Below the pieces are notes generated by a model. It had not been told where the DNA came from and ran no database searches. It saw only the letters and a program-made list of their open reading frames with translations. Below, piece after piece: positions 2,656-45,741 of a stretch of DNA of 64,000 nt. The stretch comes from Microgenomates group bacterium (lineage in GTDB: Bacteria; Patescibacteriota; Microgenomatia; UBA10105; UBA927). How positions within the stretch are numbered: position 1 is the first letter of the stretch; every line of letters begins with the position of its first letter. The position numbers and the translations under genes are program-made. Location: the NCBI GenBank assembly GCA_049287205.1, contig JBAQFJ010000001.1, positions 575,041-639,040 on the forward strand. The letters run 5' to 3'.

Positions 2656-2663
2656 AACATTAT

Positions 2664-3509: not shown

Positions 3510-3562
3510 ACAAGCGTATATTCTTCTTGTAGAAGTTGTTTAAGGAACATATACTATCACTA

Positions 3563-4051
3563 ATGAAGTTAAAAATTATAATCATTCTCATACTATTAGG
3601 GCTTAATCCGCATACTGTTTTTGCTCAACGTTGTGCCCAAATTACGACAAAAGATAAAATACTGCTAAAGCTACACAGTCTTAAGGACGATATCTATCTT
3701 TTTTTACTAGCCGACGTAAATAAGCAAATCAAGTATCATCTGACAAAAGCAGACTCTCTTTATACGATTTCCTCAAACGCTGCGGATCCGTCTGTATCTT
3801 TTTCATTGTCTTTACAGGCTGAAAATCATATTACCCAGATACCGAAGTTGTTACAACATCTGCCTTCTACTCAATCGTTTGACATGAACGGATACGAAAA
3901 ACAGCAAGCCATCCATACATCAGTGATACGTCAAATGAAAAGTGAGTGTGAATGGAATATACTGTTGGGATTTATTGACAGCAATTACGAGACGATTAAA
4001 AAAATCTATGTGGTAAAGCTGCCGACGGATCAACAACGACTGCTGTATTAG
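3563..4051 (+). CDS. small secreted hypothetical protein (signal peptide)
   Basis: The ORF-track start at 3536 is TTG. ATG at 3563 gives MKLKIIIILILLGLNPHTVFA (signal-peptide-like), preceded by AAGGAA at 3542-3547. It is the only plus-strand gene in the first 27 kb. No recognisable domain. Confidence 0.5.
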   Translation: MKLKIIIILILLGLNPHTVFAQRCAQITTKDKILLKLHSLKDDIYLFLLADVNKQIKYHLTKADSLYTISSNAADPSVSFSLSLQAENHITQIPKLLQHLPSTQSFDMNGYEKQQAIHTSVIRQMKSECEWNILLGFIDSNYETIKKIYVVKLPTDQQRLLY

Positions 4052-6054
4052 TATTCAATAATTTTCACCGTTATATCTTCCCACTGACATGTACTTTTTT
4101 CTGGATTATATATACGTAAGTCCGTGATTCTTTCTCCGGTAAATAGATAGACATCACTCGCCCCTGGATAGAACGGCGTCTCATAATTAAAATATCCTGG
4201 TATTCCCCATGTGTTAAACCAAGTTCTCCCTCTGTCACCAGAGATATTCAGGATTGCGTTCTGTACGCGAAGTGCACATGCAGGATTATCGTAAGCAAAT
4301 TCAACTCTTTTAATAACGACAGTACTCGCAAAAGAAAATTGTATTGAATCGTCCACGTATTTTTTTTGATATGCAGACATATCCACTTCAGTTTCTACCG
4401 TCTGATCGACGTTTGTGTGTTGTTTGTCATTCTTCCAAATATAAAGCAACGGAACCCCATCCACCATAACGACATGTACAGGATCAAGAAAACGCAACGC
4501 ATACCGTATACGAAAATAATCGTTCACATTCATTCCTGGATATGCCAATTCCATAATATACTCACCCTGTTGTTCTGGAATTTTTGATTGATCACCCATA
4601 TAGTTGATGTCAGATCTCAAATAGGTATCAGGTATTGCAGATCGTATACCCATACCAAGAGATACAGTCGCGCCGGACTCAACATGATCATTAATCCAAC
4701 GTATACCCTGTTTATAGGCATTTCCATATGTGTTGTCCGAACCTTCTAAACCATACCTTATTGCTCCATTCAATCCTCCTATTAACCCGTTGAAGTACAC
4801 ATTTTCATTCGGATGAATCTGAATCATTTTAACAATCACAAATGAATAGGAAAAAAACACACAAACTATAAGTAAACGTTTGAAATAACGTTTAGTCAAA
4901 CTTCCATACAGAACTGATATTCCAACTCCAGATAGAAGTGTCAGCGGCGCCATATATTCCATAATCTGACGAAGACTTCCTCCATAAAGAACCATGATTG
5001 GAAGTGTCGCCCTTCCTAGGGTTACTAGCAACCACAGTATCCATAACAAAAAGACATTATTTTTTCTCGCCAGGTTACGCCAGCCAAACACCGCGCCAAA
5101 TATAAATAATAGTAGGGTTACCAGTGGCATAGTCATCACAAATAGTAACGGCGTCCTCCAATCTGAGCATTGTTGAACCCAATATATTGATAATGGAGGA
5201 AATATACACTCTCTGGAGGAACCCGATATACCTTGATAATATTTAATAACTTCTATAGTTTTTTGTAGTGGGCTCGACCAAAGAGCAGGGTATGTATAAA
5301 CAAATATGGCATATGTGACTATCGGTATTATTAGCAAAGATAGTATAATAATTTTTCTTAACTTTTTGTCTTCCCAAAATTTCAGCGAGATAAACCAAAA
5401 CACGATTGGAAATAGCGAGAAAATAATATTAAACTTTGTTCCGAGAGAAAGCCCAAAAAATACAGCGGAAATTATAACTGACCAAATCTTTTTATATTCA
5501 ACGGTGATCCAAAGAAAGAATAATGCACCGGTATAATAAGACAGAATGAGAGGATCCTTGATATTAAAATGTTGTTCTGCAAACAGGTGTGGTAACGTTC
5601 CAAACGCTAGTACGGTAAAAAATGACGCTACCGGTCCAAAAGTCAGGTACGACCAGACACCTAGCATGATCATAGTAAGAATAGTCATCAAAACGACAAA
5701 TAAATGATGACTCTCGATATCGCCGACAAGTCCAAATTTACCCCATACGATTCTATTGGTGGCCGCCATGAGAATGTCTGATACAGGCGGATGTCCGATG
5801 GTCATTTGCTGCGCCCACTCAAACGTTAACGGTGTTTTCTGGTAATAACTTAATCTTTCTTCACTACCTACCGGCGGCGGGTCAGTTTTTCCCTGTGTGA
5901 TATAGCGAAGATATATATGTCCTCTGGCAAGATGCTGAAATGAGTCCCAATTTACCCCGTAAGAGGGCAATGTTTTAATAGAAAAAAACGCAAAAACCAC
6001 GATCACAATACCCGTAGGAATCCATCGTAATTTCATATCTTTTGCATTCTGCAA
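4048..6054 (-). CDS. large polytopic membrane protein with about 250-aa C-terminal extracytoplasmic domain; putative GT-C type glycosyltransferase
   Basis: 668 aa. N-terminal half has many hydrophobic segments (GVNWDSFQHLARGHIYLRY...). The C-terminal third is hydrophilic and beta-rich. Family not recognised. Confidence 0.5.
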   Translation of the reverse strand: MQNAKDMKLRWIPTGIVIVVFAFFSIKTLPSYGVNWDSFQHLARGHIYLRYITQGKTDPPPVGSEERLSYYQKTPLTFEWAQQMTIGHPPVSDILMAATNRIVWGKFGLVGDIESHHLFVVLMTILTMIMLGVWSYLTFGPVASFFTVLAFGTLPHLFAEQHFNIKDPLILSYYTGALFFLWITVEYKKIWSVIISAVFFGLSLGTKFNIIFSLFPIVFWFISLKFWEDKKLRKIIILSLLIIPIVTYAIFVYTYPALWSSPLQKTIEVIKYYQGISGSSRECIFPPLSIYWVQQCSDWRTPLLFVMTMPLVTLLLFIFGAVFGWRNLARKNNVFLLWILWLLVTLGRATLPIMVLYGGSLRQIMEYMAPLTLLSGVGISVLYGSLTKRYFKRLLIVCVFFSYSFVIVKMIQIHPNENVYFNGLIGGLNGAIRYGLEGSDNTYGNAYKQGIRWINDHVESGATVSLGMGIRSAIPDTYLRSDINYMGDQSKIPEQQGEYIMELAYPGMNVNDYFRIRYALRFLDPVHVVMVDGVPLLYIWKNDKQHTNVDQTVETEVDMSAYQKKYVDDSIQFSFASTVVIKRVEFAYDNPACALRVQNAILNISGDRGRTWFNTWGIPGYFNYETPFYPGASDVYLFTGERITDLRIYNPEKSTCQWEDITVKIIEY

Positions 6055-6743
6055 AATATATTAGTAAATCCTGAAGACGTCTTATATTCCCTATCTAATT
6101 TCTTAGTTATAACATTTTCAAAAAACGGAGCTCTTTGAAATACCCATTTTGATATATATAAATCCAACAAGCTAATAATTTCCCACCATCCACCCATAAT
6201 TCGCAGGTCATGAATCTTAAATCTGGTCTTGGCTAATTTCCTGATACGATCACTTGAATAATGACGATGTCCAATTAACCAAAACGCGGGATCAAATAGT
6301 GTTCCAAAAAGAGATCTGTGCGGTGTTGAAAGGTAGCATATTCCATCTTTTTTTAACACCCGAGCGATCTCTGAAAACATTTTTTCTTCTGTACCTTTCG
6401 GTATATGTTCAATTACCTCCCAAGATACAACCGTATCAAAGGTGTTGTCTTTAAATGGCAAGTCTATCGCACTCCCCTTAAGGAAAACTATTTTCTTTTC
6501 GCGAATATATTTTTTCGCGGTACTAAGGTCATTTTCCGTCAACTCAGTCCCGACAATAGATGAGACCAAATTATTCTGCGCATACACTTCAAACCAGCCA
6601 TACCCACATCCGATATCTAAAATTTTTTTATTTTTTATATCCTGAAGATTAACGTATTCAGTAACAAACTTTACTCTTCCGTGAAGAGAATCATACGGAG
6701 TTTGATGGGTAATATTTTTCATATTATTGTTCGTTATAAACAA
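6033..6743 (-). CDS. class I SAM-dependent methyltransferase
   Basis: ILDIGCGYGWF (motif I, GxGxG), DTVVSWEVIEHI and KKDGICYLSTP motifs of Methyltransf_11-type MTases. Embedded between membrane GT-C genes. Confidence 0.8.
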   Translation of the reverse strand: MFITNNNMKNITHQTPYDSLHGRVKFVTEYVNLQDIKNKKILDIGCGYGWFEVYAQNNLVSSIVGTELTENDLSTAKKYIREKKIVFLKGSAIDLPFKDNTFDTVVSWEVIEHIPKGTEEKMFSEIARVLKKDGICYLSTPHRSLFGTLFDPAFWLIGHRHYSSDRIRKLAKTRFKIHDLRIMGGWWEIISLLDLYISKWVFQRAPFFENVITKKLDREYKTSSGFTNIFCRMQKI

Positions 6744-8061
6744 GTATTGTCCAGATGGTGAGAAGTACTATTGCTATACAAATTGCGATATTGATCAAAC
6801 GAAACACCTTTTTGTTTGCAAGTTTCGAGAAAATTCCAGGAAGTGCGCCAACTGCTACTGTTATAAGGTATATACGAAATACCGGATAGGAAAATCCGAG
6901 AACTCTTCCCCAACTACTTGCAAACATTGATAGTCCAATGACAACAAATGACAATGCTGTTACCAGATAGTTTTTGTTCAAATACTCTTTAAAAAATGCC
7001 GCGACAGCTATCGCTAAAAACGGATAGAACGGATACCTGTACCATCCGTGAAGCGGTTCACTTGGAATTGCAAAGACAAAGATTGCCATATAGGCAAGAA
7101 ACCCAAATAGGATAGGTAACTGTTTTTTGACATCCTTCACCAATAATAAAACTATCGCCGCCCATCCAAAATATATCCACCCATCAACCAGTGCCCTATC
7201 AGCGATGATCGGGTCACGAAAAAGTATAAACAGACTATCAAACGCCATATCATACCTTGCAAGCTGCAGTTTCCAAAGATTAGTAAACAACGTCGCATCT
7301 GTTGTGTACCCGTAAACAAGCCAAACGCCAAGTCCTGTGACCGTTGCTAGTACAACCCAAAATGCCGCTTTCCATTTTTTGGAAAACAAAAATATTCCGA
7401 TAACTGCAAGTGGTGCTGCAATCCACGGCATTTTTGCAAGAGGAAGCAGTCCGCAAAGAAGTGCCGTCAACCCTAAATTCAAGGTAATCAATTTTTTATT
7501 TTTGGCTGTTCTTTCGATATATTTGTATGCAAAATACAATGCGAAAAGAAACAAGGGTATAAAGAAATTTTCATTCTGCACAAGCCGTGAACCGATAACG
7601 ACGGTCGGAAGAATCGCATATATTCCCGAGGCAGCCAGTCCAACAACATTCCCATACACTGCACTTGTGAGTACAAACACGGCAACTATCGAAATCACAC
7701 CCATAATGAGTGCGAGCGGCCGTATTTTTGCGATCGTCACATCATCAAATGTTTGTACACCCTGCATCTTCGCAAACGCCCCTGCAACAATTCCAAACAG
7801 CGGGGGATGCTCTAGATAAGGACTCACAAGAGTGAAACGTGCTCCCTGTGGGTTAAAATATTCAATCTTGTTTACATACGCAGCATGCGGTGACCAAGAC
7901 ACGGGGGTACCGGAATTCAAGATGCTTATTCCCTGAAAAGTCCACGCAAACTCATCAAATGTTGCGCCTTCTCGTGGCCAAACGTTTACATTATAGGAAC
8001 GGAGCATCCCTCCAACGATAAGAATGATTAATAATACACTGTATGTTATCCAACGTCTCAT
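6724..8061 (-). CDS. polytopic membrane protein, ArnT/PMT-like (GT-C) with FDEFAW loop motif
   Basis: 445 aa, about 11 hydrophobic helices. N-terminal periplasmic loop carries FDEFAWTFQGISILNSG (Asp-Glu motif as in PMT_2/ArnT-like glycosyltransferases). Confidence 0.55.
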   Translation of the reverse strand: MRRWITYSVLLIILIVGGMLRSYNVNVWPREGATFDEFAWTFQGISILNSGTPVSWSPHAAYVNKIEYFNPQGARFTLVSPYLEHPPLFGIVAGAFAKMQGVQTFDDVTIAKIRPLALIMGVISIVAVFVLTSAVYGNVVGLAASGIYAILPTVVIGSRLVQNENFFIPLFLFALYFAYKYIERTAKNKKLITLNLGLTALLCGLLPLAKMPWIAAPLAVIGIFLFSKKWKAAFWVVLATVTGLGVWLVYGYTTDATLFTNLWKLQLARYDMAFDSLFILFRDPIIADRALVDGWIYFGWAAIVLLLVKDVKKQLPILFGFLAYMAIFVFAIPSEPLHGWYRYPFYPFLAIAVAAFFKEYLNKNYLVTALSFVVIGLSMFASSWGRVLGFSYPVFRIYLITVAVGALPGIFSKLANKKVFRLINIAICIAIVLLTIWTILVYNEQ

Positions 8062-8070
8062 AAAAAATAT

Positions 8071-9189
8071 TTATTCCCGCTTTTTTATTGCTTTTTGCAG
8101 TAATGCTAAGCTTTGTTTTGTAACATCATCCCATTTCAAACTCAAAACCCAAGTTTTCCCGTTCTTTTGGTACTCAGCATATCTTTTTGTGTCGCCATAC
8201 AAACGAACGGCTTCCTGTGCCATAATCTGGGGTGAATTATTTCGTATCACCACTCCAGTCTCTCCATCTTTTACCACATCTCGTAAGCCGTGCACGTTGT
8301 ACACCACGGCAGGAGTCAAAACCGAGGCTGCCTCAAGCACCACGAGTCCCCACCCCTCCTTCACTGAAGCATGAAGCAACATGTGAGCTTTTGTCAGACA
8401 TTCGTATTTTTTTTGCTCAGATACAAGCCCAAAAAATGTCACATGGTCATAAATTCCATATTCCTTCATCATTGTCTTCAATTCTTCTATATATGTCGTT
8501 TCCCCATCCCCTACGATCCACAGTTGTGCTTTAGATTGTTCTTTTAATATAAAAGAGAACGCTTTTACTACTTCCTCAATGCCTTTCATGCGAACCACTC
8601 GTGAGACGAAAATGTACGTAGGATTTATTTCCTTTTTATATAGTCCCACATTACTCCCTTGCGCTGTTATCGGGCATGGAATAGCAAAGCACTGACTCTT
8701 CGGAATGCCCCGCTCGATCAGTTCTTCAACTGTCGAAGGTGCATCAGTCCATACTAAACACCGTCTATAAACCAAAAAATACCATCGCTCTAACCATTTT
8801 CCGATGATATTTTTCGGAAAAGAGAACATGTAGTCCCAAATCTCGCCCGCAATCTCGTGGATGAACATCACGACAGGAGTTTTCGTAAACAAAGGAGAGA
8901 AAAACGGAAATCCGTGCACCTCATCGACAATCACATCAAATTTTCTTGCATGAAGAAAAAGGTATGCTACGGCATACGGGTAAATCGTTAATGACCCAGC
9001 CCTTCTGACAATATGCACTCCATCAATTATTTCTTCTTGTTTACCACCGTTATACCATCCGGTAAGCCAGGTAACAGAATGACCAGCCTTCACCCATCCC
9101 TTCGCATGTTCCATGGTAACAAGCTCTGCGCCACCTGATTTTGGATGACTTTTATCACGCCAATTTAACAGCAAAATATTCATAATCAA
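8071..9189 (-). CDS. GT4 family glycosyltransferase (GT-B fold)
   Basis: C-terminal EGWGLVVLEAASVLTPAVVYNVHGLRDVV (E-x7-E GT4 signature); N-terminal MIMNILLLNWRDKSHPKSGGAE. Confidence 0.85.
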   Translation of the reverse strand: MIMNILLLNWRDKSHPKSGGAELVTMEHAKGWVKAGHSVTWLTGWYNGGKQEEIIDGVHIVRRAGSLTIYPYAVAYLFLHARKFDVIVDEVHGFPFFSPLFTKTPVVMFIHEIAGEIWDYMFSFPKNIIGKWLERWYFLVYRRCLVWTDAPSTVEELIERGIPKSQCFAIPCPITAQGSNVGLYKKEINPTYIFVSRVVRMKGIEEVVKAFSFILKEQSKAQLWIVGDGETTYIEELKTMMKEYGIYDHVTFFGLVSEQKKYECLTKAHMLLHASVKEGWGLVVLEAASVLTPAVVYNVHGLRDVVKDGETGVVIRNNSPQIMAQEAVRLYGDTKRYAEYQKNGKTWVLSLKWDDVTKQSLALLQKAIKKRE

Positions 9190-9977
9190 CCTACATTAAC
9201 CCGAAAGTTTAATTCAGGATCGAAGCGCCATTTCCGTTTATTTGCATTGTCGTAATAATGACGAATCCGAAGGCGATAAAACACCGCCAACGTATCTTGC
9301 ATCATATTCCATACCGTCACCAATATTTTTTTTAGGGTAATTGAAGACGTCGCGACAGCAAAATTCAGTTCAACAGGTGCTTCATGGATTTTTGTGTATC
9401 CGAGGCGATTTGCAACTGCCAGTATCTCGATATCAAATGCAAATTGCTTAACAAGGAGTCGTGGTAGTACATCTTCAAGAAGCCTCCGTTTATACAATTT
9501 CATCCCCACTTGGGAATCTCTGACATGAATGCCGAATAACAAATGAATCACACGCTGATATCCCCATGAAAGAATACGGCGATAGGTAGGATATTCCACT
9601 TTCGAATCAGGATGCCTCTTGCTCCCAATAACAGCATCAGCGTCCTGGAAATCAAACTGTGCCAACATTGGAAGCAGGGCTTTTGCAGACAAATCGCCCC
9701 CTGCATCCATGAACCCTATGACATCCCCTGACGCATGGGCAAATCCAAACCGAACTGCATACCCTTTTCCATGATTGGTCGGGTATCCAACCAATTTCAC
9801 CCGCATATCTTTAATCTTTTTTACTTCCTGATCACTTTTATCAAAATATCCATCAAGCACGGGAACAATTTCAAAAGAAATATTTGCTGATTCGAGGACT
9901 TGCATAATCGTCTCGATGTCGTGCTTTATTGTTTTTTCCTGTTTATATACAGGAATGATAAGGCTAAATAATTTCAT
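9186..9977 (-). CDS. GT2 family glycosyltransferase
   Basis: FSLIIPVYKQEKTI...VPVLDGYFD, FMDAGGD motifs; 263 aa; 4-nt overlaps with both neighbours. Confidence 0.8.
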   Translation of the reverse strand: MKLFSLIIPVYKQEKTIKHDIETIMQVLESANISFEIVPVLDGYFDKSDQEVKKIKDMRVKLVGYPTNHGKGYAVRFGFAHASGDVIGFMDAGGDLSAKALLPMLAQFDFQDADAVIGSKRHPDSKVEYPTYRRILSWGYQRVIHLLFGIHVRDSQVGMKLYKRRLLEDVLPRLLVKQFAFDIEILAVANRLGYTKIHEAPVELNFAVATSSITLKKILVTVWNMMQDTLAVFYRLRIRHYYDNANKRKWRFDPELNFRVNVG

Positions 9978-11233
9978 ATGGTGCTCTTTTTATTATGTAG
10001 ATAATACGCTCCAAGACCCAACACAAGCAAGACAGAAATACTAATATTAATATAGATGACTTCCTCTATACTCTCGTGAAAAATTGAGATACCGATAATT
10101 TGTACCAGCGAACAGATGACAGGGATTATCCAAATTTTCGTCTTCCCCGTTGCCAAAAAAGTGACAGTGAACATGTTTCCGATGGAATACAGTACAAGAA
10201 AAATACCAAATATGCCGAGAAGTGAAGCGCCTCCTACATATGAAGCGCCAAACAACATTTTAATAATAAGGCTAGGAAACAAAAAATAAAGAATCGTAAT
10301 TCCTGATGATATGACAGTGACGCTTATTAATCCCATTGTAATGAGTTTGCTTGTATTTTCACCTTTCGCAGTTCGCTCTGACAAGACTGGATAGAATACC
10401 GATGCGAGAACCGAAGATGCGTAAAAAATAATCTTTCCAAGTACCGCAAGCGATGCATACACTCCGGCATCAATTGCAGTAAAATAGTGACGTACTAAGA
10501 TCATGTCTGTAGAATATATTGATGTCATACCAAGTGTAACAAGTAATGTTGGAATTGCGTATCGAAAGGCTTCACGTTTGGTAAGCTTCATCGGTAACAA
10601 TGGAGCGGTAAAAAGAAATCTAAGTGGGAAAAAATTTAATATGTATATAACGATTCCGCTGACTAGTGTCGCAATAAGTACTCCCATCACTCCGAATTGA
10701 ATAGCTGAAATACTCAGCGGTAATTTTAAAATAATTGCGCCGGCCCCAAGAATGCTTACCCATAAAAATTTCTGATACCCCTGTAAAACACTAGACATGA
10801 TAACTGTGAGTAATGAAAAAATAAAAATAACATATACGATGATAAACATGAGGGGAGATTTAATATTTAGATATGCCGATACTATTGGTGAAACCGCAAT
10901 GATAATTGGCAACAAACCGATGCAGAAAATCATGGCCGCCTTTGTGACTTTTGAAAACAACGTTTTTGTCTGACCAACTTCCCCTTTTGCTTTAAAACCT
11001 GAAATAAATTTCACTAAAACAAGAGAACCCACATTTAAAGGAACAGAAAAGATATAAAAAATAGAAAGAAGTGAAGATAACTCTCCATATCCGACAGGGC
11101 CTAATAACCGGCCCATTAATAAATGGTAAACGTATGCAGCCACGTTGGCTGACATAGAACCCACAAACATAATCATACTGTCTCTCGCCAGAGAGTGTGA
11201 TGTTATTTTCTGCATCAGGCTTTTAATTTTCAT
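9974..11233 (-). CDS. oligosaccharide/polysaccharide flippase (Wzx-like, MOP superfamily)
   Basis: 419 aa with about 12 evenly spaced hydrophobic helices and the N-terminal pattern of polysaccharide biosynthesis/flippase proteins (MIMFVGSMSANVAAYVYHLLMGRLLGPVGYGE). Confidence 0.65.
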   Translation of the reverse strand: MKIKSLMQKITSHSLARDSMIMFVGSMSANVAAYVYHLLMGRLLGPVGYGELSSLLSIFYIFSVPLNVGSLVLVKFISGFKAKGEVGQTKTLFSKVTKAAMIFCIGLLPIIIAVSPIVSAYLNIKSPLMFIIVYVIFIFSLLTVIMSSVLQGYQKFLWVSILGAGAIILKLPLSISAIQFGVMGVLIATLVSGIVIYILNFFPLRFLFTAPLLPMKLTKREAFRYAIPTLLVTLGMTSIYSTDMILVRHYFTAIDAGVYASLAVLGKIIFYASSVLASVFYPVLSERTAKGENTSKLITMGLISVTVISSGITILYFLFPSLIIKMLFGASYVGGASLLGIFGIFLVLYSIGNMFTVTFLATGKTKIWIIPVICSLVQIIGISIFHESIEEVIYINISISVLLVLGLGAYYLHNKKSTI

Positions 11234-11283
11234 ATCTTTTTACCATTGCGCTCTACCCATCTCTCCTTTTGTTTCGAACTCTT

Positions 11284-11964
11284 TTAAAAACGGTATTTAA
11301 TAAGTGTCCAAAATGCGATAATACCATCTCTCCACGTCAGTTTTTTCCCTTCAGAAAACTTTCTGCCGTAATAGGAAATTGGCACTTCATATATTTGATA
11401 TCCTTTTTTTAACACCTTCGCCGTTATTTCCGGTTCCATGTCAAATCGCTTCGATTGTACTGTAATTCCTGAAAGTACTTCCTTCCGAAACGCTTTAAAC
11501 CCGGTTTCCAAATCTGTAATATTTGCGTTATACAATATATTGTTTACCAATGTGACAAATTTATTCCCCTGCGCATAGACAAACATCGTTGACAAATGCG
11601 GTCCTAAAAACCGGGAACCGTATACAATGTCAACTTGTTTGTTTTCAAACGGGGCAAGAAGCACCAAATAGTCTTTTGGATCATATTCCAAATCCGCATC
11701 CTGGAAAAGAATATAATCGCCCTTGGCTTTTGTAAGTCCAATGGTTACAGCGCTTCCCTTTCCTTCATTTTTCTGTTTGTATACGACCGTTACTTTTTTC
11801 TCCCAAGCAACAAGTTTCTTTTTCGTTCCGTCGGTTGATCCGTCATCCACAACGATAACCTGCTTGTTCCAATCAGGCAACTGCACCTCAGTCACACGAT
11901 GAAGTATTTCATCAATGGTATGAACCTCGTTATAGACAGGAATAATAATAGATACTTTCTTCAT
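11284..11964 (-). CDS. GT2 glycosyltransferase, DPM1/GtrB-like (polyprenol-phosphate sugar synthase-like)
   Basis: From internal ATG at 11964: MKKVSIIIPVYNEVHTIDEIL...VVDDGSTDGT...QDADLEYDP. The longer ORF-track form (to 12201) would overlap the upstream gene by 240 nt. The short form gives a 4-nt ATGA junction. Confidence 0.8.
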   Translation of the reverse strand: MKKVSIIIPVYNEVHTIDEILHRVTEVQLPDWNKQVIVVDDGSTDGTKKKLVAWEKKVTVVYKQKNEGKGSAVTIGLTKAKGDYILFQDADLEYDPKDYLVLLAPFENKQVDIVYGSRFLGPHLSTMFVYAQGNKFVTLVNNILYNANITDLETGFKAFRKEVLSGITVQSKRFDMEPEITAKVLKKGYQIYEVPISYYGRKFSEGKKLTWRDGIIAFWTLIKYRF

Positions 11965-13055
11965 GCGATAAACCAGCCCCTCAGAAACAGAGCTGTAGCC
12001 ATTATCTCCAATATCGTACTTCCGAGCAAGAGCGATATCTTGATTTTTTTTGATGGAATTGAACCTAGAATAATAAATAAGGGTACTGCTGCCAAAATAT
12101 ACCGAGGCATCGATGAAAATGTGCCGGTAAGTGTAGGAATCGTGAGAACCACAAGACAGTATAGAAGTGCCGCCAGTGAAATCCGTTTTCTCCCAAGCCA
12201 CAATGCTACATACGAAATACCGGTCATAACAAATTCAAGCACGGTCACGAGATAGGACATGACAGTCGGCTGCATATATGCGGTGACTAACATTTTTAAA
12301 TATCGCCACACCACTTGCGGAGGGGAAATGAGTGCACTCCCGCTTCTGTTTGCACCAAAGGCAGACTGTACATGCATAAAAAGGAATGGGTCATTTTGCG
12401 TTGCGTTTAAAAAATACATATACCAAAACAATCCGATAGGCATAATGAGAAACCCAAGAATATCAACAATACGAATGTTCTTTGGTTTGGACCCAATATA
12501 TTCAATCAATGCATAGAGAGCCAGACAAATACCGATAATCCGGATCGCGCTTGCTACAGCTATCACAACGCCTGCCCACAAAAGCTGTTTTTTGGAAACG
12601 AAATGCATAACAAGTACCACGCACAAAAAAAATAGACCTTCGGTATACACAGCCCGAAAGAAAAAACTCGTCGGGAATGCAAGAAGAAATACTGTGGTGA
12701 ATTTTGCAAGCCTCTGCGATTTCTTCGCAAGGAGTGCATAAAGTATCATGAGCCCAATCAAAAATGAGATAAGAGAGATTCCAACGCCAATATATTCATA
12801 AGGTAACGGAAGTATCTGATGAAACGCGCGCATAAGCAGTGGATAGACTGGAAAAAACGCATATGCATACTGATAATACCCCGATTCAGCTATTTTTACA
12901 TAATGCACCCCGTCAAAATTCCCCCATGGAGAAACACCAAAATAACCGGTCCGAATAGGAATAAGATATGAAACCTTTTCTATGAGCTGCAAGGTAACAC
13001 CCCAGACTGCAAACGCAAGAAGAACAAACTTATTTTTTTGCCAAAATTGTTTCAT
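11961..13055 (-). CDS. polytopic membrane mannosyltransferase-like protein resembling the PIG-V/Gpi18 (GT76) family
   Basis: From ATG at 13055 (MKQFWQKNKF...). The loop motif GNFDGVHYVKIAESGYYQYAYAFFPVYPLL closely resembles the D-x-x-H-[FY]-x-x-IA-x-x-GY...FAFFPxxP signature I recall for PIG-V mannosyltransferases. About 9 helices. Confidence 0.5.
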   Translation of the reverse strand: MKQFWQKNKFVLLAFAVWGVTLQLIEKVSYLIPIRTGYFGVSPWGNFDGVHYVKIAESGYYQYAYAFFPVYPLLMRAFHQILPLPYEYIGVGISLISFLIGLMILYALLAKKSQRLAKFTTVFLLAFPTSFFFRAVYTEGLFFLCVVLVMHFVSKKQLLWAGVVIAVASAIRIIGICLALYALIEYIGSKPKNIRIVDILGFLIMPIGLFWYMYFLNATQNDPFLFMHVQSAFGANRSGSALISPPQVVWRYLKMLVTAYMQPTVMSYLVTVLEFVMTGISYVALWLGRKRISLAALLYCLVVLTIPTLTGTFSSMPRYILAAVPLFIILGSIPSKKIKISLLLGSTILEIMATALFLRGWFIA

Positions 13056-14085
13056 ATACAGCAACTGTTTCGTGAGCAGTTTTTTCCCAACTAAATGTTT
13101 TTGCCCAAGCAATACTATCCATATGCATCTTTTTTTTGGCTGTCGGTGACAATGTAAACATACGAATAATAGTTTCCGCCATACCTTGCACATTGCCGGC
13201 ATCCATTCTCAATGAGGGCCCTGCAATCTCACTAAGACTTGAGTTATCTGCAACGACAACGGGACAGCCGCATACCATTGCCTCCAAGACCGGCAGTCCG
13301 AATCCCTCATAAAAGGACGGCTCTACTAAACAGGTAGCCATCGAATACAACCCGACTAATTCTTCCTGACTGACAAAACCTGTCATCGTGACATGATCTT
13401 CAAGATGCAAATCATGGATACATTGTTCGATTTTTTGTGTTTCCTGAAGTTGACTGTTTTTAAATGCTCCCCCAACTAGTACTAAGTGAGTATTTTTCTT
13501 TTTTTGAAGAACGAGTGCGAATGCGGATAACAACCCAAGCACATTCTTATTCCAATTCACATCGCCGACAAATAACATAAAATTTGCAGGCAATTGATAT
13601 TTTTCCTTGATTACCTGTTCCAATTGTTTACTCTGTTTGACTTCATATCCTGGGGTCGCGGCAGAATACACCGCATGGATTTTACTTTCAGGTATTCGCA
13701 CAATGCGTTCAACGTCTTTTTTTGAACATTTTGAGACAGTAATAATGCCTTCGACTCGACGAAGCGCGATCTTTTGCATGTTCCACTTCACTCTTCCCCT
13801 GATTCCTGCGGGGAATTGTTCAGGAAACACCAATGGGATCAGGTCATGAACGGTTACGACAGTCGGAATTGTTTTTTCCCATGGGAGCGTCAAAAAAAAC
13901 GGGTCGAAATAGGGATAATGCACTATTTCTGCAGTATCGGGTATTTTTTCTCCTCGAGTAAAAAAACTATACGAATGTTTAGATTCATACTGCTGTAACG
14001 CATCAATAAGATTTTTGGTGTATACACCCACTCCACGCATGGCGTGTCCTGAGGAAAGTGGTGTTGTGTCTATCGCAATATTCAT
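13030..14085 (-). CDS. GT4 family glycosyltransferase
   Basis: EGFGLPVLEAMVCGCPVVVADNSSLSEIAG (E-x7-E) and the upstream GGAFKNSQ Rossmann-like segment. Confidence 0.85.
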   Translation of the reverse strand: MNIAIDTTPLSSGHAMRGVGVYTKNLIDALQQYESKHSYSFFTRGEKIPDTAEIVHYPYFDPFFLTLPWEKTIPTVVTVHDLIPLVFPEQFPAGIRGRVKWNMQKIALRRVEGIITVSKCSKKDVERIVRIPESKIHAVYSAATPGYEVKQSKQLEQVIKEKYQLPANFMLFVGDVNWNKNVLGLLSAFALVLQKKKNTHLVLVGGAFKNSQLQETQKIEQCIHDLHLEDHVTMTGFVSQEELVGLYSMATCLVEPSFYEGFGLPVLEAMVCGCPVVVADNSSLSEIAGPSLRMDAGNVQGMAETIIRMFTLSPTAKKKMHMDSIAWAKTFSWEKTAHETVAVYETILAKK

Positions 14086-15683
14086 TGGTGTTTTCTCCTA
14101 TACCAAAGTATACCCAATATAGCAAAAATCACCAAACTAGCCACTGAAACCGCGTCAGCGAGCGTACGAATGAGGGTTTCCTGCATAACAAGACGCACGA
14201 TATGTGTGCCTTTTGGAACGCGTACATCAATCGTGCCTTGGCTTTGATAGTCAATTGGTGTCGATACCCCGTCAACATATGCAGTCCATCCCGGAAAATA
14301 GAGTATGTGAAACCGAATGACCGTATCACTACCGAGTGACACTGTATACTGACGATCAAGATATTTCTCATTCGGGCCATCCACAATAATAGGATTCCCT
14401 TCCGTATCCGTTGCAATTGTCAGCGACTTTGTTTCTTTCCAAGGCGTCCAGATGGTCGACAAACTGTTACCCATGGACGATGTACCGTCGGTAAAATTTG
14501 ATCGGGATGCATAATATGCATCGTTTCTCGATTCATACTGTGCCCCCCGCGTGTAAGGAAATGCAAAGAGCACCGAACAACAGACGAGGAGTATTGGAAT
14601 CCACAGTTTTTTTGATTGTTCGGTGGTAAAGGCGGAAGCCCATGCAGTAAACGGGATCATAAGAACCAATAATCGCCATGGATATTGCAAGTACGGCAAT
14701 ACAGGCACATGCTGCCATATCCATACAGATGACGGCAATACAAGATATATGCTTACCGCCATAATCCCAATGACAACAAACAGCTCGCGCTTTTGTTTCG
14801 TAGATGCCTTTTTTAACCGAAAAATTATGTATCCAACCCACAACAAAACTGCAGCCCCTATCTGCAAGGACATTTTATTCCCGCTCGATCCAACACCTGA
14901 AAATTCAGTTCCCCATGAAGGAATAAGAAGTTCAGGAATGCTTGCAAAGTGATCAATGACACTCACTGTGTTTAACCCCACCATATAGTGTGACTCGGCA
15001 ACCGCAGGTAACCAAAACCATGCTGACAATCCAATTCCCAATACAAGGCACGCAAGCCATTTGGCGCTCAGTCGATACAACACATACAATCCCAATATCG
15101 GAAGAAAGATGATGGATAATCCGTTATGCGAAAGCAGTAATAAACACGCAGCAAGCGTCAAAAGGAAACCAGAACGTTTTTCAATACTAAAAAAACCTAA
15201 GAATAGAAATGTAATTGCCCATATTTCCCCTATAGATCCTCGTACGTACAGCTCGACAAACCAATACGGCACAAATGCAGCGGCAATCGTGCCAAAACTC
15301 GCGCTTTTTTGTGACCATTTCGTTTTTAACCACAAAAAACAAAATACCAGTGCGGATAAATACGCAAAAGCGCTTGTATATTTAAACGCAGTGACGAATT
15401 CAACACCAAAAACATGGAATAACGCTGCCATATAATTTGGAAACGGATACATAAACTGAAACAATGGTAAACCATATCCGCTATTTATTGTCGGCGCCCA
15501 ACGTGGGAACAGATACCCTTGGCTCAGCATGCGATAAAACTCCATAAACCGGATTATGTGATATTCCCCGTCATGTGTCGGAAGAAAACGGTTGCCTAAA
15601 AAAGGAAGTATTGCGACAACACCAAGTACCAAAACAACAAGTAATCCAAGGAAATTCAATATTTTTTTATTTTTTATGTTCAT
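14082..15683 (-). CDS. short YfhO-like polytopic membrane protein (GT-C) with C-terminal beta-sandwich module
   Basis: 533 aa. N-terminal THDGEYHIIRFMEFYRMLSQGYLFPRWAPTINSGYGLPLFQFMYP motif is shared with 19254..20912, 44064..45740 and 45742..47295. C-terminal YFPGWTAYVDGVSTPIDY...VPKGTHIVRLV module is shared with the long YfhO-like proteins. Confidence 0.6.
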   Translation of the reverse strand: MNIKNKKILNFLGLLVVLVLGVVAILPFLGNRFLPTHDGEYHIIRFMEFYRMLSQGYLFPRWAPTINSGYGLPLFQFMYPFPNYMAALFHVFGVEFVTAFKYTSAFAYLSALVFCFLWLKTKWSQKSASFGTIAAAFVPYWFVELYVRGSIGEIWAITFLFLGFFSIEKRSGFLLTLAACLLLLSHNGLSIIFLPILGLYVLYRLSAKWLACLVLGIGLSAWFWLPAVAESHYMVGLNTVSVIDHFASIPELLIPSWGTEFSGVGSSGNKMSLQIGAAVLLWVGYIIFRLKKASTKQKRELFVVIGIMAVSIYLVLPSSVWIWQHVPVLPYLQYPWRLLVLMIPFTAWASAFTTEQSKKLWIPILLVCCSVLFAFPYTRGAQYESRNDAYYASRSNFTDGTSSMGNSLSTIWTPWKETKSLTIATDTEGNPIIVDGPNEKYLDRQYTVSLGSDTVIRFHILYFPGWTAYVDGVSTPIDYQSQGTIDVRVPKGTHIVRLVMQETLIRTLADAVSVASLVIFAILGILWYRRKHQ

Positions 15684-16788
15684 GATATTTTTTCATACCG
15701 TACACAGCTACGTATAACCCCAATGGAATAATCGTCAAAAGTGTCCTTGCCATGGGTCCAAATCCGCCGTACTGCCCCATGTATATATATGGAAGATGCC
15801 TCAGCTCTAATGCAAATGATAAACAAAGCGTCCAACCGATAAGAAACGAGTGTTTCTTTATGTCCAAAAAAGCTGCGATACTAATCAACCACACAGCGTA
15901 CCATGGATATAATTCTTCACGGAGCGGCGCAAGAACAAAAAAAACAAAAGACATGAGTCCGTACGCATACAGTAACAGCCTTTCCCAAGAAATATTTTTC
16001 AATACCATAATTGGCGCGAGGACAAGTGTTGGAACTTTTGTACACCATGAGAAAATAAGAAATAATAAACCGAATAGCTTCTTTTTTTCGTGCCAAAGAT
16101 ATACCCCGAGCATCGCAAACAGCATCATCATGATATCATTATGCCCCGACACCAATACTTCAGTGAGAATCAGCGGATTCAAAGCAAAAAATATCACATT
16201 TTTCTTTGACTTAGTAACACTATAGATGAAAAAAATGAAAAGGAGATATACGAGGGCGTTTAACAATTTAAAAGAAATTATTGTTCTCCAAATATTTCCA
16301 CCGCCTAACGCGTTCGGTAACGCAGTTATTCCAATCCACAAAGGACCATAGAGAGCGACTTTGTTAGCAGCCCGCGTAAATGCGAGATATGGTTCATTTG
16401 GAATTTCAATTGGCATCACGATGTACGGATTCTCATGATGCGTGAACGCGACTTTTGCAGTCGCCATATAATTAAACAGATCATAACTTAATGCGGAAAA
16501 AGAACACACAAGTATGATAACTGTTGTTCCTATCACAATCCATAATTTTTTCCATGAAACGAATAGTTTTTCTGATTGAAAAAAAGCAAATACATACCAC
16601 CCTGTTAACCCCAAAAGAATAAGAAAAAATATGAGTGCAGCCAGTGGCCGATCAAAATATACTATATGACGCAGTGGCGCAAACCATGTAAGAAGCAACG
16701 TATTGTTTGTGAGTGACAGATTTAAATCAATAAATCCATACGAAAAAATGGTAAAGCTTATAAGAATAATAAAATACAGTATTATCAT
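15667..16788 (-). CDS. polytopic membrane protein, 'HxNPY' paralogue family (putative GT-C)
   Basis: 373 aa, about 10 helices. YDLFNYMATAKVAFTHHENPYIVMPIE motif is shared with 48868..50046 (YDFFNYLFTAKTVLVYHKNPYVVTPLQ). Confidence 0.5.
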   Translation of the reverse strand: MIILYFIILISFTIFSYGFIDLNLSLTNNTLLLTWFAPLRHIVYFDRPLAALIFFLILLGLTGWYVFAFFQSEKLFVSWKKLWIVIGTTVIILVCSFSALSYDLFNYMATAKVAFTHHENPYIVMPIEIPNEPYLAFTRAANKVALYGPLWIGITALPNALGGGNIWRTIISFKLLNALVYLLFIFFIYSVTKSKKNVIFFALNPLILTEVLVSGHNDIMMMLFAMLGVYLWHEKKKLFGLLFLIFSWCTKVPTLVLAPIMVLKNISWERLLLYAYGLMSFVFFVLAPLREELYPWYAVWLISIAAFLDIKKHSFLIGWTLCLSFALELRHLPYIYMGQYGGFGPMARTLLTIIPLGLYVAVYGMKKYHEHKK

Positions 16789-17930
16789 GTTCGTTTTATA
16801 TGATGCCTCTTATATACAACCTGTTTTGCAATCGAAAAAATAGCCCATATCATCATGCTATAACAAATCGGCAAAAAAGGCAGAAGATACCGAGCAGATG
16901 CTTGTCCTAGGGATATAAAAACACTGTATACAATGATGCAAAGAGCAGATATCTGTATAGCTGGATCCAGTTTCTTAACGATTGAACTTGCCGCGTACAA
17001 ACTTGTCAATATTCCGCTACCAATGACAATCGGCCAGGAAATAACCCAGCTTGCATCCTGAATAATCGGGATCTCTCCCCACCAAACATACCATTTGTTC
17101 AAAAAAATAAGCGGCCATATGGTAAACAGATGATTTAATTTTCCGTTTTGATACCAATACAGCCATTTTTGCACTTTCAACACCTCAATTACCGAATAGC
17201 CATCCATAAACATGCGAATGTATACCAATAGCGTCGTTATAAGGATTATTCCTCCTCCGCCTACGACATACCAAAAATATTTTGGCTTTTTTAAAAGAAT
17301 ATATAATGTAATCACCGCGGTAAACACTATCCCTATCAGCCAAACTTTCGTCATCATGGCACATCCAAGGAACAGATATGACAATAAAAGATAGAACGGT
17401 TTATCTTTTTTCAGTGCAAATGACGCAGTGATAACTGCATACAAAATAAAGGTGATAAAAAACATATCCAGTAACGGCGAAAATGAAAGTTGGTCCACAA
17501 ATAATCGTTCGAATGACGCGATTAAAACTGCGCCTAACGACATAATTCTATTATTTGTCATGAGTAGCACAAGCAAATAGATTCCGAAAAGCATGAATAC
17601 AAAAAAGAATGCGATACTTATGTGTTCATTGTTTGCTATCAAAATAGAAAGTCCAATGAGATATTTCCCGAGCGGCGGTTGAGTAGGTTCAACAATTATG
17701 GGGCTGGCGCCTTTGAGATATGCACCGGCCGCATATGCGTACACAATTTCATCAGGAATCCACGACTTCCATTCTTTCATTGTGTATTGTGATTGACCAT
17801 ATACATTTTTTAGACTTTCATATCGCATCCAGTAATCTGGTGCATATGCATCTCTATGCTGATATATCGTCCACCCTACACGGAAACATATGAGAATAAA
17901 AAGAAGAATAGTAATTACTTTTTTTGCCAT
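16785..17930 (-). CDS. short PMT/GT39-like membrane glycosyltransferase
   Basis: Loop-1 motif WIPDEIVYAYAAGAYLKGASPIIVEPTQPPLGKYLIGLS matches the DE...(H)PPLgK signature of protein O-mannosyltransferase/ArnT-family GT-C enzymes. 381 aa, no MIR domain. Confidence 0.55.
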   Translation of the reverse strand: MAKKVITILLFILICFRVGWTIYQHRDAYAPDYWMRYESLKNVYGQSQYTMKEWKSWIPDEIVYAYAAGAYLKGASPIIVEPTQPPLGKYLIGLSILIANNEHISIAFFFVFMLFGIYLLVLLMTNNRIMSLGAVLIASFERLFVDQLSFSPLLDMFFITFILYAVITASFALKKDKPFYLLLSYLFLGCAMMTKVWLIGIVFTAVITLYILLKKPKYFWYVVGGGGIILITTLLVYIRMFMDGYSVIEVLKVQKWLYWYQNGKLNHLFTIWPLIFLNKWYVWWGEIPIIQDASWVISWPIVIGSGILTSLYAASSIVKKLDPAIQISALCIIVYSVFISLGQASARYLLPFLPICYSMMIWAIFSIAKQVVYKRHHIKRT

Positions 17931-18502
17931 GGAGCTGTTTTAGAACCAACGTATGTATACTGCTCTTTAGTGTCTTGGAGGGCATTCAGTAGAGTATTTC
18001 TGATTTGAATAGATGTATCTAACATTACGCCAATGGATAAATCTGTTGCCACTGCTTTTTCAGGTATCCATTGAAATTCGTTGGGCAACCATTGCTTCAT
18101 ATACTCAATGGTCGATACATGCGTCTTCATCGCTTCAACTACAATTGTCTTCTGAACGCTCATATCTTTTCCCTCACGCATTCCTTTTTCAATAAGCGAG
18201 GTGATGTCAACAAGCGCGGCATCAGACCGGGTAATAGCGTCTGCCGCAAGCAAATACTGTTTATATTCAAACAATGTTTTTGCCTCAACCAAATATTTAT
18301 CTGAAAGGCTGAGGTGGTACTTTATTTGTGCAATCGTTCCCCAATTCCAGTAATTTTTTAGCGTATCCATCATTCGTGACACGCGATAGATTTTGTTCCC
18401 CGGCATAAAGGATGGGTATGGAAGAACGTATTCTGCATACACCTGAGGAACAAAATACATAAAGCTAACAAACAGCAACAAATACAAACTTATTTTTTTC
18501 AT
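17915..18502 (-). CDS. secreted hypothetical protein (signal peptide, alpha-helical)
   Basis: MKKISLYLLLFVSFMYFVPQVYA signal-like N-terminus; 195 aa; overlaps both neighbours (16 and 4 nt). Confidence 0.5.
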   Translation of the reverse strand: MKKISLYLLLFVSFMYFVPQVYAEYVLPYPSFMPGNKIYRVSRMMDTLKNYWNWGTIAQIKYHLSLSDKYLVEAKTLFEYKQYLLAADAITRSDAALVDITSLIEKGMREGKDMSVQKTIVVEAMKTHVSTIEYMKQWLPNEFQWIPEKAVATDLSIGVMLDTSIQIRNTLLNALQDTKEQYTYVGSKTAPWQKK

Positions 18503-19272
18503 ATCATATTTCTATACTTTCTATATGCAATTGGGAAGTGCAGAGCTGACCAATACGCAAACACCAGTCCATACCATCCGTCAACAAACCCTTTATGTCT
18601 CACAAACAGAAGAAAAAACATTTTCACGGGCTGCCAAATCATATAGGAAAACCAAGTCCTCAAGTTTTTAGAAATAGCACGCTCACGCATAAACATTGCG
18701 GTTAAACTGGTGTATGAATCAGCTTTTTTCCAATAATCTTTGGATGTTCTATACGAATAATGCAACATCGGCTCTTTTATGTAGCCGACAACCCCCTCAA
18801 CAGAAATTTGTTCATGCACATCTTTACAGGGTAACTTCGCTTTTCCATTTTTCACAAGACGGATAACATAATCAGGATATTGGCCGCCTTTTTTCATGAA
18901 GTGACCCCAAAAATTATTTCGTCGAGGAATATAATACCCGTTTATTTTTTTATCATCTGTTTCCACTATCTGCAAAATTTCTTTTTTGAGCGCACTTGTA
19001 ATCACTTCGTCAGCATCAAGCTGTAAAATCCATGCACCTTTGCTGGCATCCATCGCAATTTGTTTGTTGATATGAAAAATAGCAGGATTGTCGGCGTGAA
19101 TAATATGCTTTGTATATTTTTCAGCGATTGTAACGGTATTATCTGTTGAACCACCGTCCACCACGACAATTTCATCAACCCATGGCGTAACGGATGTTAG
19201 ACACGCATCAAGATTCTTTCCTTCGTTATAGACTGCTATTGCTACAGATAATTTCATGCTCTTTTTTTCCAT
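18499..19272 (-). CDS. GT2 family glycosyltransferase
   Basis: MKLSVAIAVYNEGKNLDACLTSV...VVVDGGSTDNT...LDADEV. The likely start is the internal ATG at 19257, giving a 4-nt overlap with the upstream gene. Confidence 0.8.
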   Translation of the reverse strand: MEKKSMKLSVAIAVYNEGKNLDACLTSVTPWVDEIVVVDGGSTDNTVTIAEKYTKHIIHADNPAIFHINKQIAMDASKGAWILQLDADEVITSALKKEILQIVETDDKKINGYYIPRRNNFWGHFMKKGGQYPDYVIRLVKNGKAKLPCKDVHEQISVEGVVGYIKEPMLHYSYRTSKDYWKKADSYTSLTAMFMRERAISKNLRTWFSYMIWQPVKMFFLLFVRHKGFVDGWYGLVFAYWSALHFPIAYRKYRNMI

Positions 19273-20912: not shown

Positions 20913-20917
20913 ACTAT

Positions 20918-25468: not shown

Positions 25469-25508
25469 ACGATATATCTCATTGTATCATGGAAGAACGG
25501 CATTTTCC

Positions 25509-26984: not shown

Positions 26985-27036
26985 AAAAATAAATTACAAA
27001 TGTAGTGAATATATATAGTATATAATAGATACTCAT
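26985..27036. promoter_or_regulatory. divergent promoter region between minus 25509..26984 and plus 27037..29439
   Basis: 52-nt AT-rich spacer containing TATATA-G-TATATAAT (self-complementary TATATA repeats and a TATAAT -10-like hexamer usable on either strand). Confidence 0.4.
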
Positions 27037-29439: not shown

Positions 29440-29448
29440 CGTTCATTT

Positions 29449-31008: not shown

Positions 31009-31064
31009 AGTTGTCTTATTGACCGACTGCTTATATCATAATACATAGAGTGCTTATTTAATAT
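31009..31064. promoter_or_regulatory. divergent promoter region between minus 29449..31008 and plus 31065..32810
   Basis: 56-nt spacer with two TGCTTAT copies about 23 nt apart and a CATAAT -10-like element. Confidence 0.3.
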
Positions 31065-32810: not shown

Positions 32811-32819
32811 ACAAATTCT

Positions 32820-45740: not shown

Positions 45741-45741
45741 A

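Follow-up and report, generated by a model that had tools for sequence, protein, structure and literature searches.

A distant PIG-V relative coupled to a DPM1-type glycosyltransferase as the probable core of an extracytoplasmic glycosylation module in a Microgenomates bacterium

Within a 64,000-nucleotide stretch of the genome of a Microgenomates group bacterium (the window, in what follows), open reading frame (ORF) analysis placed two genes on the minus strand between positions 11284 and 13055, one for a membrane protein of the GT-C glycosyltransferase class (the GT-C protein) and one for a soluble family 2 glycosyltransferase (the short GT2). On balance, we favor the view that this pair forms the central part of a three-component module for extracytoplasmic glycosylation, embedded in a surface-glycan island, in which a sugar would be loaded onto a lipid phosphate inside the cell, flipped across the membrane and transferred to an acceptor outside. 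The evidence comes from the fold and conserved residues of the GT-C protein, its relationship to PIG-V, the eukaryotic glycosylphosphatidylinositol (GPI) mannosyltransferase II, the type of the GT2 encoded next to it, and the company that the GT-C gene keeps in related genomes.

Organization of the locus

The GT-C gene (11961..13055, minus strand) begins with an ATG at 13055 (MKQFWQKNKF...), a start backed by homologs of 364 to 366 amino acids (aa) that align from residue 1, and ends after 364 codons with a TGA stop at 11963..11961. The short GT2 gene (11284..11964, minus strand) starts with an ATG at 11964..11962 and runs to 11284, and its 226-aa product begins MKKVSIIIPVYNE... Stop and start share 4 nucleotides (nt), ATGA ("cgcATGAag"), an arrangement from which the short GT2 is predicted to be translationally coupled to the GT-C gene. 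An earlier interpretation made from the letters alone (the sequence-only reading) had drawn attention to this overlap, and its coordinates and strand assignment were all right as well. Three plus-strand ORFs lying over the pair (11635..11838, 11899..12255, and 12259..12516) were taken as incidental; the region codes on the minus strand.

At its 5' end, the GT-C gene overlaps by 26 nt, as it does in relatives, with an upstream gene encoding a cytoplasmic GT4 enzyme of the GT-B fold (13030..14085, minus strand; PF00534, E = 2.4e-31). On the other side, 50 nt downstream of the short GT2, lies the gene for a Wzx-like transporter of the MOP family (9974..11233, minus strand; 419 aa, ~10 transmembrane [TM] segments; PF13440, E = 6.6e-9; PF01943, E = 9.9e-7), which is joined by a 4-nt overlap to the gene for a second DPMS-like GT2, here called GT2b (9186..9977, minus strand; 263 aa; PF00535, E = 1.1e-19). 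Next in the row is a further GT4 gene (8071..9189). Spacing within the operon amounts to overlaps of 26, 4, 4, and 4 nt and a single gap of 50 nt. No terminator-like site was found in that gap between the short GT2 and Wzx genes, and a scan for promoters and terminators gave no excess over shuffled sequences.

The GT-C protein is a distant relative of PIG-V

Sequence comparison clearly identified PIG-V/Gpi18 (PF04188, COG5542, CAZy GT76) as the nearest named family to the GT-C protein. For this comparison, we used a human PIGV sequence (493 aa) that was validated by its match to PF04188 (710.6 bits, E = 1.5e-213). These figures agree with those published for Q9NUD9 (PMC6056205). The GT-C protein itself aligned with human PIGV in BLASTP (E = 1e-8, 26% identity over 150 aa), and a family profile built from 33 homologs, 36 to 84% identical, recovered it both with hhalign (probability of 95.2%, E = 2.8e-8) and with HMMER (E = 1.4e-9; database size, 177,635). 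The same profile detected none of the PDB sequences at E ≤ 10, and thus none of the solved GT-C sequences, although the PDB as searched includes PIG-M/Gpi14, PIG-U, ALG3/6/9/12, PimE, ArnT, PglB/STT3, and the Emb and Aft enzymes; because PIGV is detected and these are not, PIG-V is the nearest named relative. An NCBIfam scan of the GT-C protein returned nothing meaningful.

Membership in PF04188, which the sequence-only reading had put forward, holds for the family but not for the protein itself. Among the 33 aligned homologs, PF04188 (Mannosyl_trans2) was found in 19, PMT_2 in 9, and GT87 in 6, and 7 of the 10 homologs scanned individually scored 28.7 to 36.3 bits on PF04188, above its gathering cutoff of 22.4 bits. 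These matches span profile positions ~50 to 220 and include the loop motif on which the resemblance to PIG-V had been recognized.

That motif was quoted exactly: GNFDGVHYVKIAESGYYQYAYAFFPVYPLL occupies residues 45 to 74 of the GT-C protein (12834..12923, minus strand) and aligns with PIGV residues 64 to 93. In the loop alignment, GNFDGVHYVKIAESGY-YQYAYAFFPVYPL is paired with the human PIGV segment such that D48 corresponds to D67 and H51 to H70; the elements IAExGY and AFFPxxPL are shared, and N46, D48, G49, Y52, A66, F67, F68, P69, and P72 are invariant in our alignment A1. A Y-[ST]-E motif is also common to both proteins, with E139 aligning with PIGV E170. On this alignment, the motif is the first extracytoplasmic loop, homologous to that of PIG-V. 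The D/ExE acidic motif of PIG-V sits in its TM1-TM2 loop (PMC6056205, Table 1). Its first acid is matched by D48, kept in 256 of 259 family members, whereas the second is missing: PIGV E69 corresponds to V50, a position with V or I in 205 of the 259 members and E in 15. Significant alignment is moreover limited to ~140 of the 364 residues (query residues 45 to 183 in hhalign; profile positions 47 to 211 in HMMER). The C-terminal TFSSMPRYIL is collinear with TCSPVTRYIL of PIGV, a suggestive match that by itself falls short of significance. Taken together, these alignments show a genuine but remote relationship to PIG-V, borne out by the loop signature and the profile match and not by the second acid or the remainder of the protein.

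Could the locus then represent a genuine GPI-type pathway, in which the GT-C protein is orthologous to GPI mannosyltransferase II and modifies a GPI-like glycolipid with alpha-1,6-mannose taken from dolichol-P-mannose, its gene having come from a eukaryote or being the ancestor of the eukaryotic gene? PIG-V is indeed its closest named relative; the likeness comprises the loop-1 signature (xD-x-x-H-[YF]...IAE-GY...AFFPxxPL), a compact GT-C protein without a large outer domain, and a DPM1-type GT2 partner, and the conserved trio of GT4, GT-C protein, and GT2 echoes PIG-A (GT4), PIG-V (GT-C), and DPM1 (GT2). However, identity is 26% over 150 residues, with the N-terminal 140 columns alone aligning; the protein has 364 aa versus 493 and falls below the PF04188 model; the second acid of D/ExE is absent; and there is no GPI pathway context. 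The Pfam matches in the window (PMT_2, PMT, YfhO, GT87, and PTPS_related and, apart from these GT-C-type families, GT2, GT4, sugar-nucleotide, transporter, and a few unrelated families) include none that is GPI specific. A specific likeness of the upstream GT4 to PimA or PIG-A was checked and only generic GT4 matches were obtained, the PDB matches being enzymes such as MshA and GlgA. Finally, the family comprises 19,247 clusters at 50% identity, and the genomes of the best 80 species all look like members of the Candidate Phyla Radiation (CPR). We therefore consider a GPI-type pathway very unlikely, and family size, depth, and low identity led us to reject the idea that the gene was recently transferred from a eukaryote.

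Fold and putative active site of the GT-C protein

For the GT-C protein (364 aa, ~11 TM segments), the AlphaFold2 model (pLDDT of 93.3, pTM of 0.92), when compared with the PDB by Foldseek, gave a top 35 consisting entirely of GT-C enzymes at probabilities of 0.90 to 1.00, among them ArnT, Gpi14/PIG-M, PglB/STT3, ALG3/9/12, and PimE (TM-score of 0.51/0.49), the last having been suggested for comparison in the sequence-only reading. On the basis of this model, we assign the GT-C fold to the protein.

A topology model with 11 TM segments and the N terminus inside obeys the positive-inside rule, the inner loops containing 13 K/R and not a single D/E. Of the 30 invariant residues, 20 fall in predicted outer loops, 10 within TM segments, and none in inner loops. 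D48 is located in the predicted first outer (extracytoplasmic) loop, and conservation among the 259 members is near complete for D48 (256), E139 (253), R237 (256), R251 (258), and R318 (258). This is the pattern expected of a GT-C enzyme whose active site faces outward, with an acid in loop 1 and basic residues that could bind the donor phosphate. Characterized GT-C enzymes all use lipid-phosphate-linked donors (PMC8476585; PMC11127046).

Two candidate synthases for the lipid-linked donor

The short GT2, a family 2 enzyme of the GT-A type (PF00535, E = 1.4e-34), carries a DAD motif at residues 89 to 91, of which D91 is invariant in our alignment A2. The enzymes that it matches over nearly its full length are PfDPMS (from Pyrococcus; 5mlz; residues 3 to 207, E = 3.4e-20) and ArnC (residues 1 to 208) and, among NCBIfam models, AglJ (residues 3 to 223; 121.6 bits, the best match) and PpgS (residues 4 to 215). 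Because it is only polyprenyl-phosphate GT2s that align in this way, other GT2s matching only the nucleotide-binding first ~100 residues, the short GT2 is read as a lipid-phosphate sugar synthase. In line with the proposal that the partner resembles a DPM1-type polyprenol-phosphate sugar synthase, it is a GT2 of the DPM1/DPMS/ArnC type and a candidate polyprenyl-phosphate sugar synthase. Neither hydrophobic segments nor PF04138 were found in it, and there is no C-terminal membrane anchor; in being TM-less it is like human DPM1, PpgS, and GacI.

The two members of the pair differ in how fast they diverge. The best 120 clusters listed for the short GT2 were all 70 to 100% identical and nearly all 226 to 229 aa long, unlike the GT-C protein, for which identity quickly drops below 50%. 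This contrast fits a conserved donor-making step combined with a diversifying, acceptor-specific step.

GT2b also resembles DPMS (PfDPMS, E = 2.7e-9 over residues 4 to 203) and ArnC, and among NCBIfam models it matches PgfS and, over the full length, PpgS. Where DPMS, ArnC, and the short GT2 have DAD, GT2b reads MDAGGDL, with a two-residue insertion in the metal-binding motif, and its metal site may therefore be atypical.

Gene neighborhoods in related genomes

Loci of relatives were typed by tblastn with the window proteins, counting GT2 genes within ~3 kb, and 72 of them had enough downstream sequence to be classified. In class A (15 loci), to which the window belongs, the order is GT4, GT-C, short GT2, Wzx, and GT2b, whereas the short GT2 is missing from class B (17 loci; GT4, GT-C, Wzx, and GT2b). 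Class C (20 loci) has GT4 and GT-C genes followed by a gene for a small SMR protein (in 10 loci), another GT2, and a DUF2304 protein (in 19 loci). Some other GT2 is found downstream in class D (7 loci), and no GT2 was found downstream in class E (13 loci).

The most constant neighbor of the GT-C gene is the GT4 gene, which lies directly upstream in 55 of the 72 relatives. Downstream, a DPMS-type GT2 is present in 59 of 72 loci, and a candidate flippase accompanies it in 40 of these 59 (Wzx-like in 30, ArnF-like in 10). The orthologues of the short GT2 in the 15 class A genomes are 63 to 75% identical and begin 0 to 18 nt after the GT-C gene; a Wzx gene follows the GT-C or GT2 gene in 30 of the 32 relatives that make up classes A and B. 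In the class C locus L004, from a member of the Curtissbacteria, the GT2 matches PpgS over the full length (174.7 bits), the small protein matches ArnF (7e-12), and a DUF2304 match (7e-23) completes the set. This set was noted at 6131..6514 and 7218..7631 of that locus, and L037, L043, L044, L050, L061, L067, L069, L082, L084, and L091 are similar. Going by these matches, the ArnF/ArnE-like SMR protein, the PpgS-like GT2, and the DUF2304 protein (GacJ/Rv3632-like) make up a complete lipid-monophosphate sugar module, of another make than that of the window. Since the kinds of synthase and flippase vary beside a constant GT-C protein, these neighborhoods make a strong circumstantial case that the GT-C family is supplied with a lipid-monophosphate sugar.

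Many of the species-representative metagenome-assembled genome records are titled "uncultured Gammaproteobacteria" or "Pseudomonadales" (L012, L015, L020, L022, L024, L029, and others) but are syntenic with CPR genomes of the Gottesmanbacteria type. One such isolate name contains "PATE," and the titles look like placeholders or wrong taxonomy.

As to which synthase supplies the GT-C protein of the window, the claim that the short GT2 is the expected donor-making partner was borne out in part: a DPMS-type GT2 is linked to the GT-C gene in the great majority of loci, but a competitor, GT2b, is kept in classes A and B. A less likely alternative, in our estimation, is that the mechanism is the one we favor but that its true donor synthase is GT2b with its overlapping Wzx gene, the short GT2 being a lineage-specific insertion that serves a different GT-C protein in the island or works on an intermediate linked through diphosphate. 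GT2b is present, at 46 to 70% identity, in every one of the 32 relatives in classes A and B, while the short GT2 is confined to the 15 genomes of class A, and the matches of GT2b to PfDPMS, ArnC, PgfS, and PpgS suit such a role. The island, furthermore, encodes ~21 GT-C-like proteins versus three clear DPMS-type synthases, and donors must therefore be shared. Against this stand the 4-nt coupling of the short GT2 to the GT-C gene and its close spacing throughout class A, its stronger similarity to DPMS (3.4e-20 versus 2.7e-9), and the altered metal-binding motif of GT2b. We thus retain the short GT2 as the favored partner of the GT-C protein.

Proposed mechanism

In the scheme that we favor, the short GT2 would, at the cytoplasmic face, move a sugar from a nucleotide sugar onto a polyprenyl monophosphate, most likely undecaprenyl phosphate; GT2b may make a lipid-linked donor additionally or instead. 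The sequence-only reading had named dolichol-P-mannose as the donor, which is unsupported as to both sugar and lipid; in a bacterial host, undecaprenyl phosphate would be the expected carrier. The Wzx-like transporter would then flip the lipid-phosphate sugar to the outer face, a role with precedents in GacK (bioRxiv 10.1101/180810) and ORF14 (PMC11127046). There, the PIG-V-like GT-C protein would take the flipped lipid-phosphate sugar as its donor, with the invariant D48 as the catalytic or acceptor-activating residue and the likewise invariant R237, R251, and R318, which lie on the same face, as likely phosphate ligands, and would add one sugar to an acceptor outside the membrane. This acceptor is probably a rhamnose-containing glycopolymer, or else a glycolipid or glycoprotein, made by the neighboring GT4 and GT2 enzymes. 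Donor lipid, sugar, flipping by Wzx, acceptor, and the roles of individual residues are here what we infer.

Several observations weigh against this scheme. The GT-C protein, in both its 364-aa and 413-aa versions, has no Pfam match in hmmscan even at E ≤ 10, PF04188 included, and in the literature searched we found no biochemistry on any member of the bacterial family. The short GT2 misses every NCBIfam equivalog cutoff (AglJ, 121.6 of 325 bits; PpgS, 65.3 of 370; ArnC, 59.1 of 529; halobacterial Dol-P-hexose transferase, 70 of 375), and its sugar specificity therefore cannot be read from its sequence. Its AlphaFold2 model, calculated from a shallow alignment (rows 70 to 86% identical), had a pLDDT of 55, with values of <50 in the C-terminal half, and was not used. 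Because the short GT2 is missing in 17 relatives (in which GT2b is present) and no GT2 is found downstream in 13 of the 72, its pairing with the GT-C protein is not obligatory, and the existence of GT2b weakens the case for the short GT2 as the unique partner. Lastly, Wzx proteins classically flip diphosphate-linked repeat units, and for that reason the Wzx encoded here may serve the backbone glycan and not the monophosphate donor.

This last point leads to another interpretation, namely, that the GT-C protein acts, in the manner of a polymerase, ligase, or oligosaccharyltransferase, on an undecaprenyl-diphosphate-linked oligosaccharide flipped by Wzx and that both GT2s are ordinary repeat-unit glycosyltransferases of the cytoplasm. 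A context of Wzx, GT4, and GT2 genes is typical for repeat-unit assembly of the Wzx/Wzy type, and PglB and STT3, both of which are among the structural matches, use diphosphate-linked donors. The nearest sequence relative, PIG-V, however, uses a monophosphate donor, and the GT-C protein is compact (364 aa), without the large outer domain of PglB and STT3. Class C loci, in addition, have no Wzx and instead carry the set of ArnF-like protein, PpgS-like GT2, and DUF2304 protein, which is specific for lipid-monophosphate sugars, and both GT2s of the window match DPMS-type enzymes through the acceptor half. These findings make a diphosphate-linked substrate improbable in our view, and we continue to favor a flipped lipid-monophosphate sugar as the donor.

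Comparison with known systems

Bacterial systems built from a synthase, a means of flipping, and a GT-C enzyme include GtrABV, GacIJKL, PpgS/Rv3632/Rv3779, and CsbB/GtcA/YfhO. Compact GT-C enzymes are paired with DPMS-type GT2s that make polyprenyl-P-sugars both in mycobacterial phosphatidylinositol mannoside synthesis (PimE, of family GT87, with Ppm1) and in O-antigen glucosylation (GtrA/GtrB/GtrV). PimE is like the GT-C protein in structure, and 6 of the 33 homologs touch the GT87 model, but a sequence search with the family profile misses PimE. The GtrABV system differs in that no small flippase of the GtrA type adjoins the pair; the one GtrA_DPMS_TM domain encoded in the window belongs to a fusion with another GT2, at 52356..53528. 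The overall three-component scheme for extracytoplasmic glycosylation has been described (PMC11127046).

The closest functional analogue is GacI/J/K/L, the side-chain system of the group A carbohydrate of Streptococcus pyogenes. In this system, the GT2 GacI, described as cytoplasmic, makes GlcNAc-P-undecaprenol and is stimulated by GacJ (DUF2304), while the Wzx-type GacK is the proposed flippase and polyrhamnose receives the sugar outside the cell from the GT-C enzyme GacL; the mycobacterial pair PpgS and Rv3632 is mentioned alongside it (bioRxiv 10.1101/180810). The window shares with it a short, TM-less GT2, a candidate flippase of the Wzx family, a GT-C protein, and a rhamnose context (rmlABCD at the head of the island), and class C relatives carry a GacJ-type DUF2304 gene directly after the GT2 gene. 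Points of difference are the lack of a DUF2304 gene beside the GT2 gene in the window or in class A and the host, a CPR bacterium; the two systems are likened by gene layout.

In M. tuberculosis, PpgS (Rv3631), a 226-aa TM-less GT2, makes polyprenyl-P-GalNAc and is stimulated by the DUF2304 protein Rv3632, and the GT-C enzyme Rv3779 transfers the sugar to arabinogalactan. Residues 4 to 215 of the short GT2 align with positions 2 to 213 of the 226 in the PpgS model, yet the short GT2 is not a PpgS equivalog (65 bits versus 370) and its best NCBIfam match is the archaeal AglJ.

Family size and annotation

The sequence-only reading had regarded the pair as an unusual, eukaryote-like combination in a bacterium. 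While the homology that it recognized is correct, the size of the family (the 19,247 clusters mentioned above), existing annotations, and the known bacterial three-component scheme all speak against this view; the pair is an unremarkable example of a mechanism already known from bacteria, with nothing peculiarly eukaryotic about it. In a scan of one genome per species, relatives of the GT-C protein were found in at least 571 genomes, and the best 80 were essentially all from CPR lineages of the Microgenomates class. The NCBI entry identical to the GT-C protein is named "hypothetical protein WAV51_02940," and some family members have been labeled "Gpi18-like mannosyltransferase" by JGI. One GT76 enzyme from a bacterial genome is also on record in CAZy (PMC5352709). 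In the literature searched, we found no characterized bacterial enzyme of PF04188, COG5542, or GT76 and nothing specific on GT-C enzymes of CPR bacteria.

In a few long members, namely, P0254 (980 aa), P0372 (1033 aa), P0334 (946 aa), and P0309 (606 aa), the GT-C family makes up the C-terminal half. P0254 has a PTPS_related domain, of another GT-C type, in front, and P0372 scores 45 bits on PF04188. From their sequences, these proteins would be either fusions of one GT-C protein to another or merged gene calls. A Rosetta-stone search among them revealed no fusion of a GT2 to a GT-C protein, the extra part being PTPS_related or without a Pfam match.

The surrounding glycan island

The pair is located in a nearly unbroken glycan island of ~57 kb (1591..58970), almost all of it on the minus strand, which contains rmlABCD, ugd, 12 GT2 genes, 4 GT4 genes, 2 Wzx genes, and genes for ~21 polytopic GT-C-like proteins (7 to 11 TM segments, 364 to 800 aa). 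Matches to GT-C-type Pfam families (PMT_2/PMT, YfhO, GT87, and PTPS_related), some of them weak, were found in 17 of these 21. Such a density of GT-C genes is unusual, and the size and density of the island are more remarkable than the pair itself.

At the head of the island lie rmlA, rmlC, rmlB, and rmlD (55856..58970), followed by genes for a UDP-glucose dehydrogenase (54535..55833) and a 319-aa SDR epimerase/dehydratase (53510..54469). Directly after these two comes the gene for the GT2 fused to GtrA_DPMS_TM (52356..53528, minus strand; PF00535, E = 1.4e-24; PF04138, E = 1.3e-15), a self-anchored third synthase candidate, and this context hints at a lipid-linked donor derived from a uronic acid or pentose.

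Four polytopic proteins have no Pfam match at E ≤ 1 and might be further, unclassified GT-C enzymes (373 to 581 aa, 7 to 10 hydrophobic segments each). The first (15667..16788, minus strand) has an orthologue in L001 that carries PF26314 (MptA_B_family); the others are encoded at 19254..20912 and 29449..31008 on the minus strand and at 31065..32810 on the plus strand. The last of these and the gene for an 800-aa protein of the YfhO family (27037..29439, plus strand) are the only large plus-strand genes of the island, and the two interrupt the minus-strand array. A gene for an S-adenosylmethionine-dependent methyltransferase (6033..6743, minus strand; PF08241, E = 4.4e-21), whose product may methylate the glycan, is situated between two GT-C genes of the PMT_2 type. 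Upstream of the island, at 59259..60269 and 62825..63991 on the minus strand, we found cell wall remodeling genes, encoding a CAP/SCP domain protein (PF00188, E = 7e-20) and an M23 peptidase carrying a coiled coil of the PcsB type.

Implications

A large family whose members are mostly labeled "hypothetical protein" gains a concrete assignment from this analysis, and a loop signature known from eukaryotic PIG-V turns out to be widespread in bacteria. One might speculate further that, in CPR bacteria, the GT4, the PIG-V-like GT-C protein, and the DPM1-like GT2 assemble a glycolipid or lipoglycan anchored in the membrane, following the logic of GPI or phosphatidylinositol mannoside synthesis, and that this very large clade is the closest prokaryotic relative, and possibly the source, of GPI mannosyltransferase II. 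If so, the GT4 would start the glycolipid inside the cell and the GT-C protein would elongate it on the outer side, with a lipid-phosphate sugar as donor, but we regard this idea as a long shot.

To our knowledge, the envelope of CPR bacteria is almost unknown. That a genome of ~1 Mb spends ~57 kb on a single glycan island encoding ~21 GT-C-like enzymes suggests a central place for heavy glycan decoration outside the membrane in the surface biology of these bacteria, and perhaps in attachment to a host.

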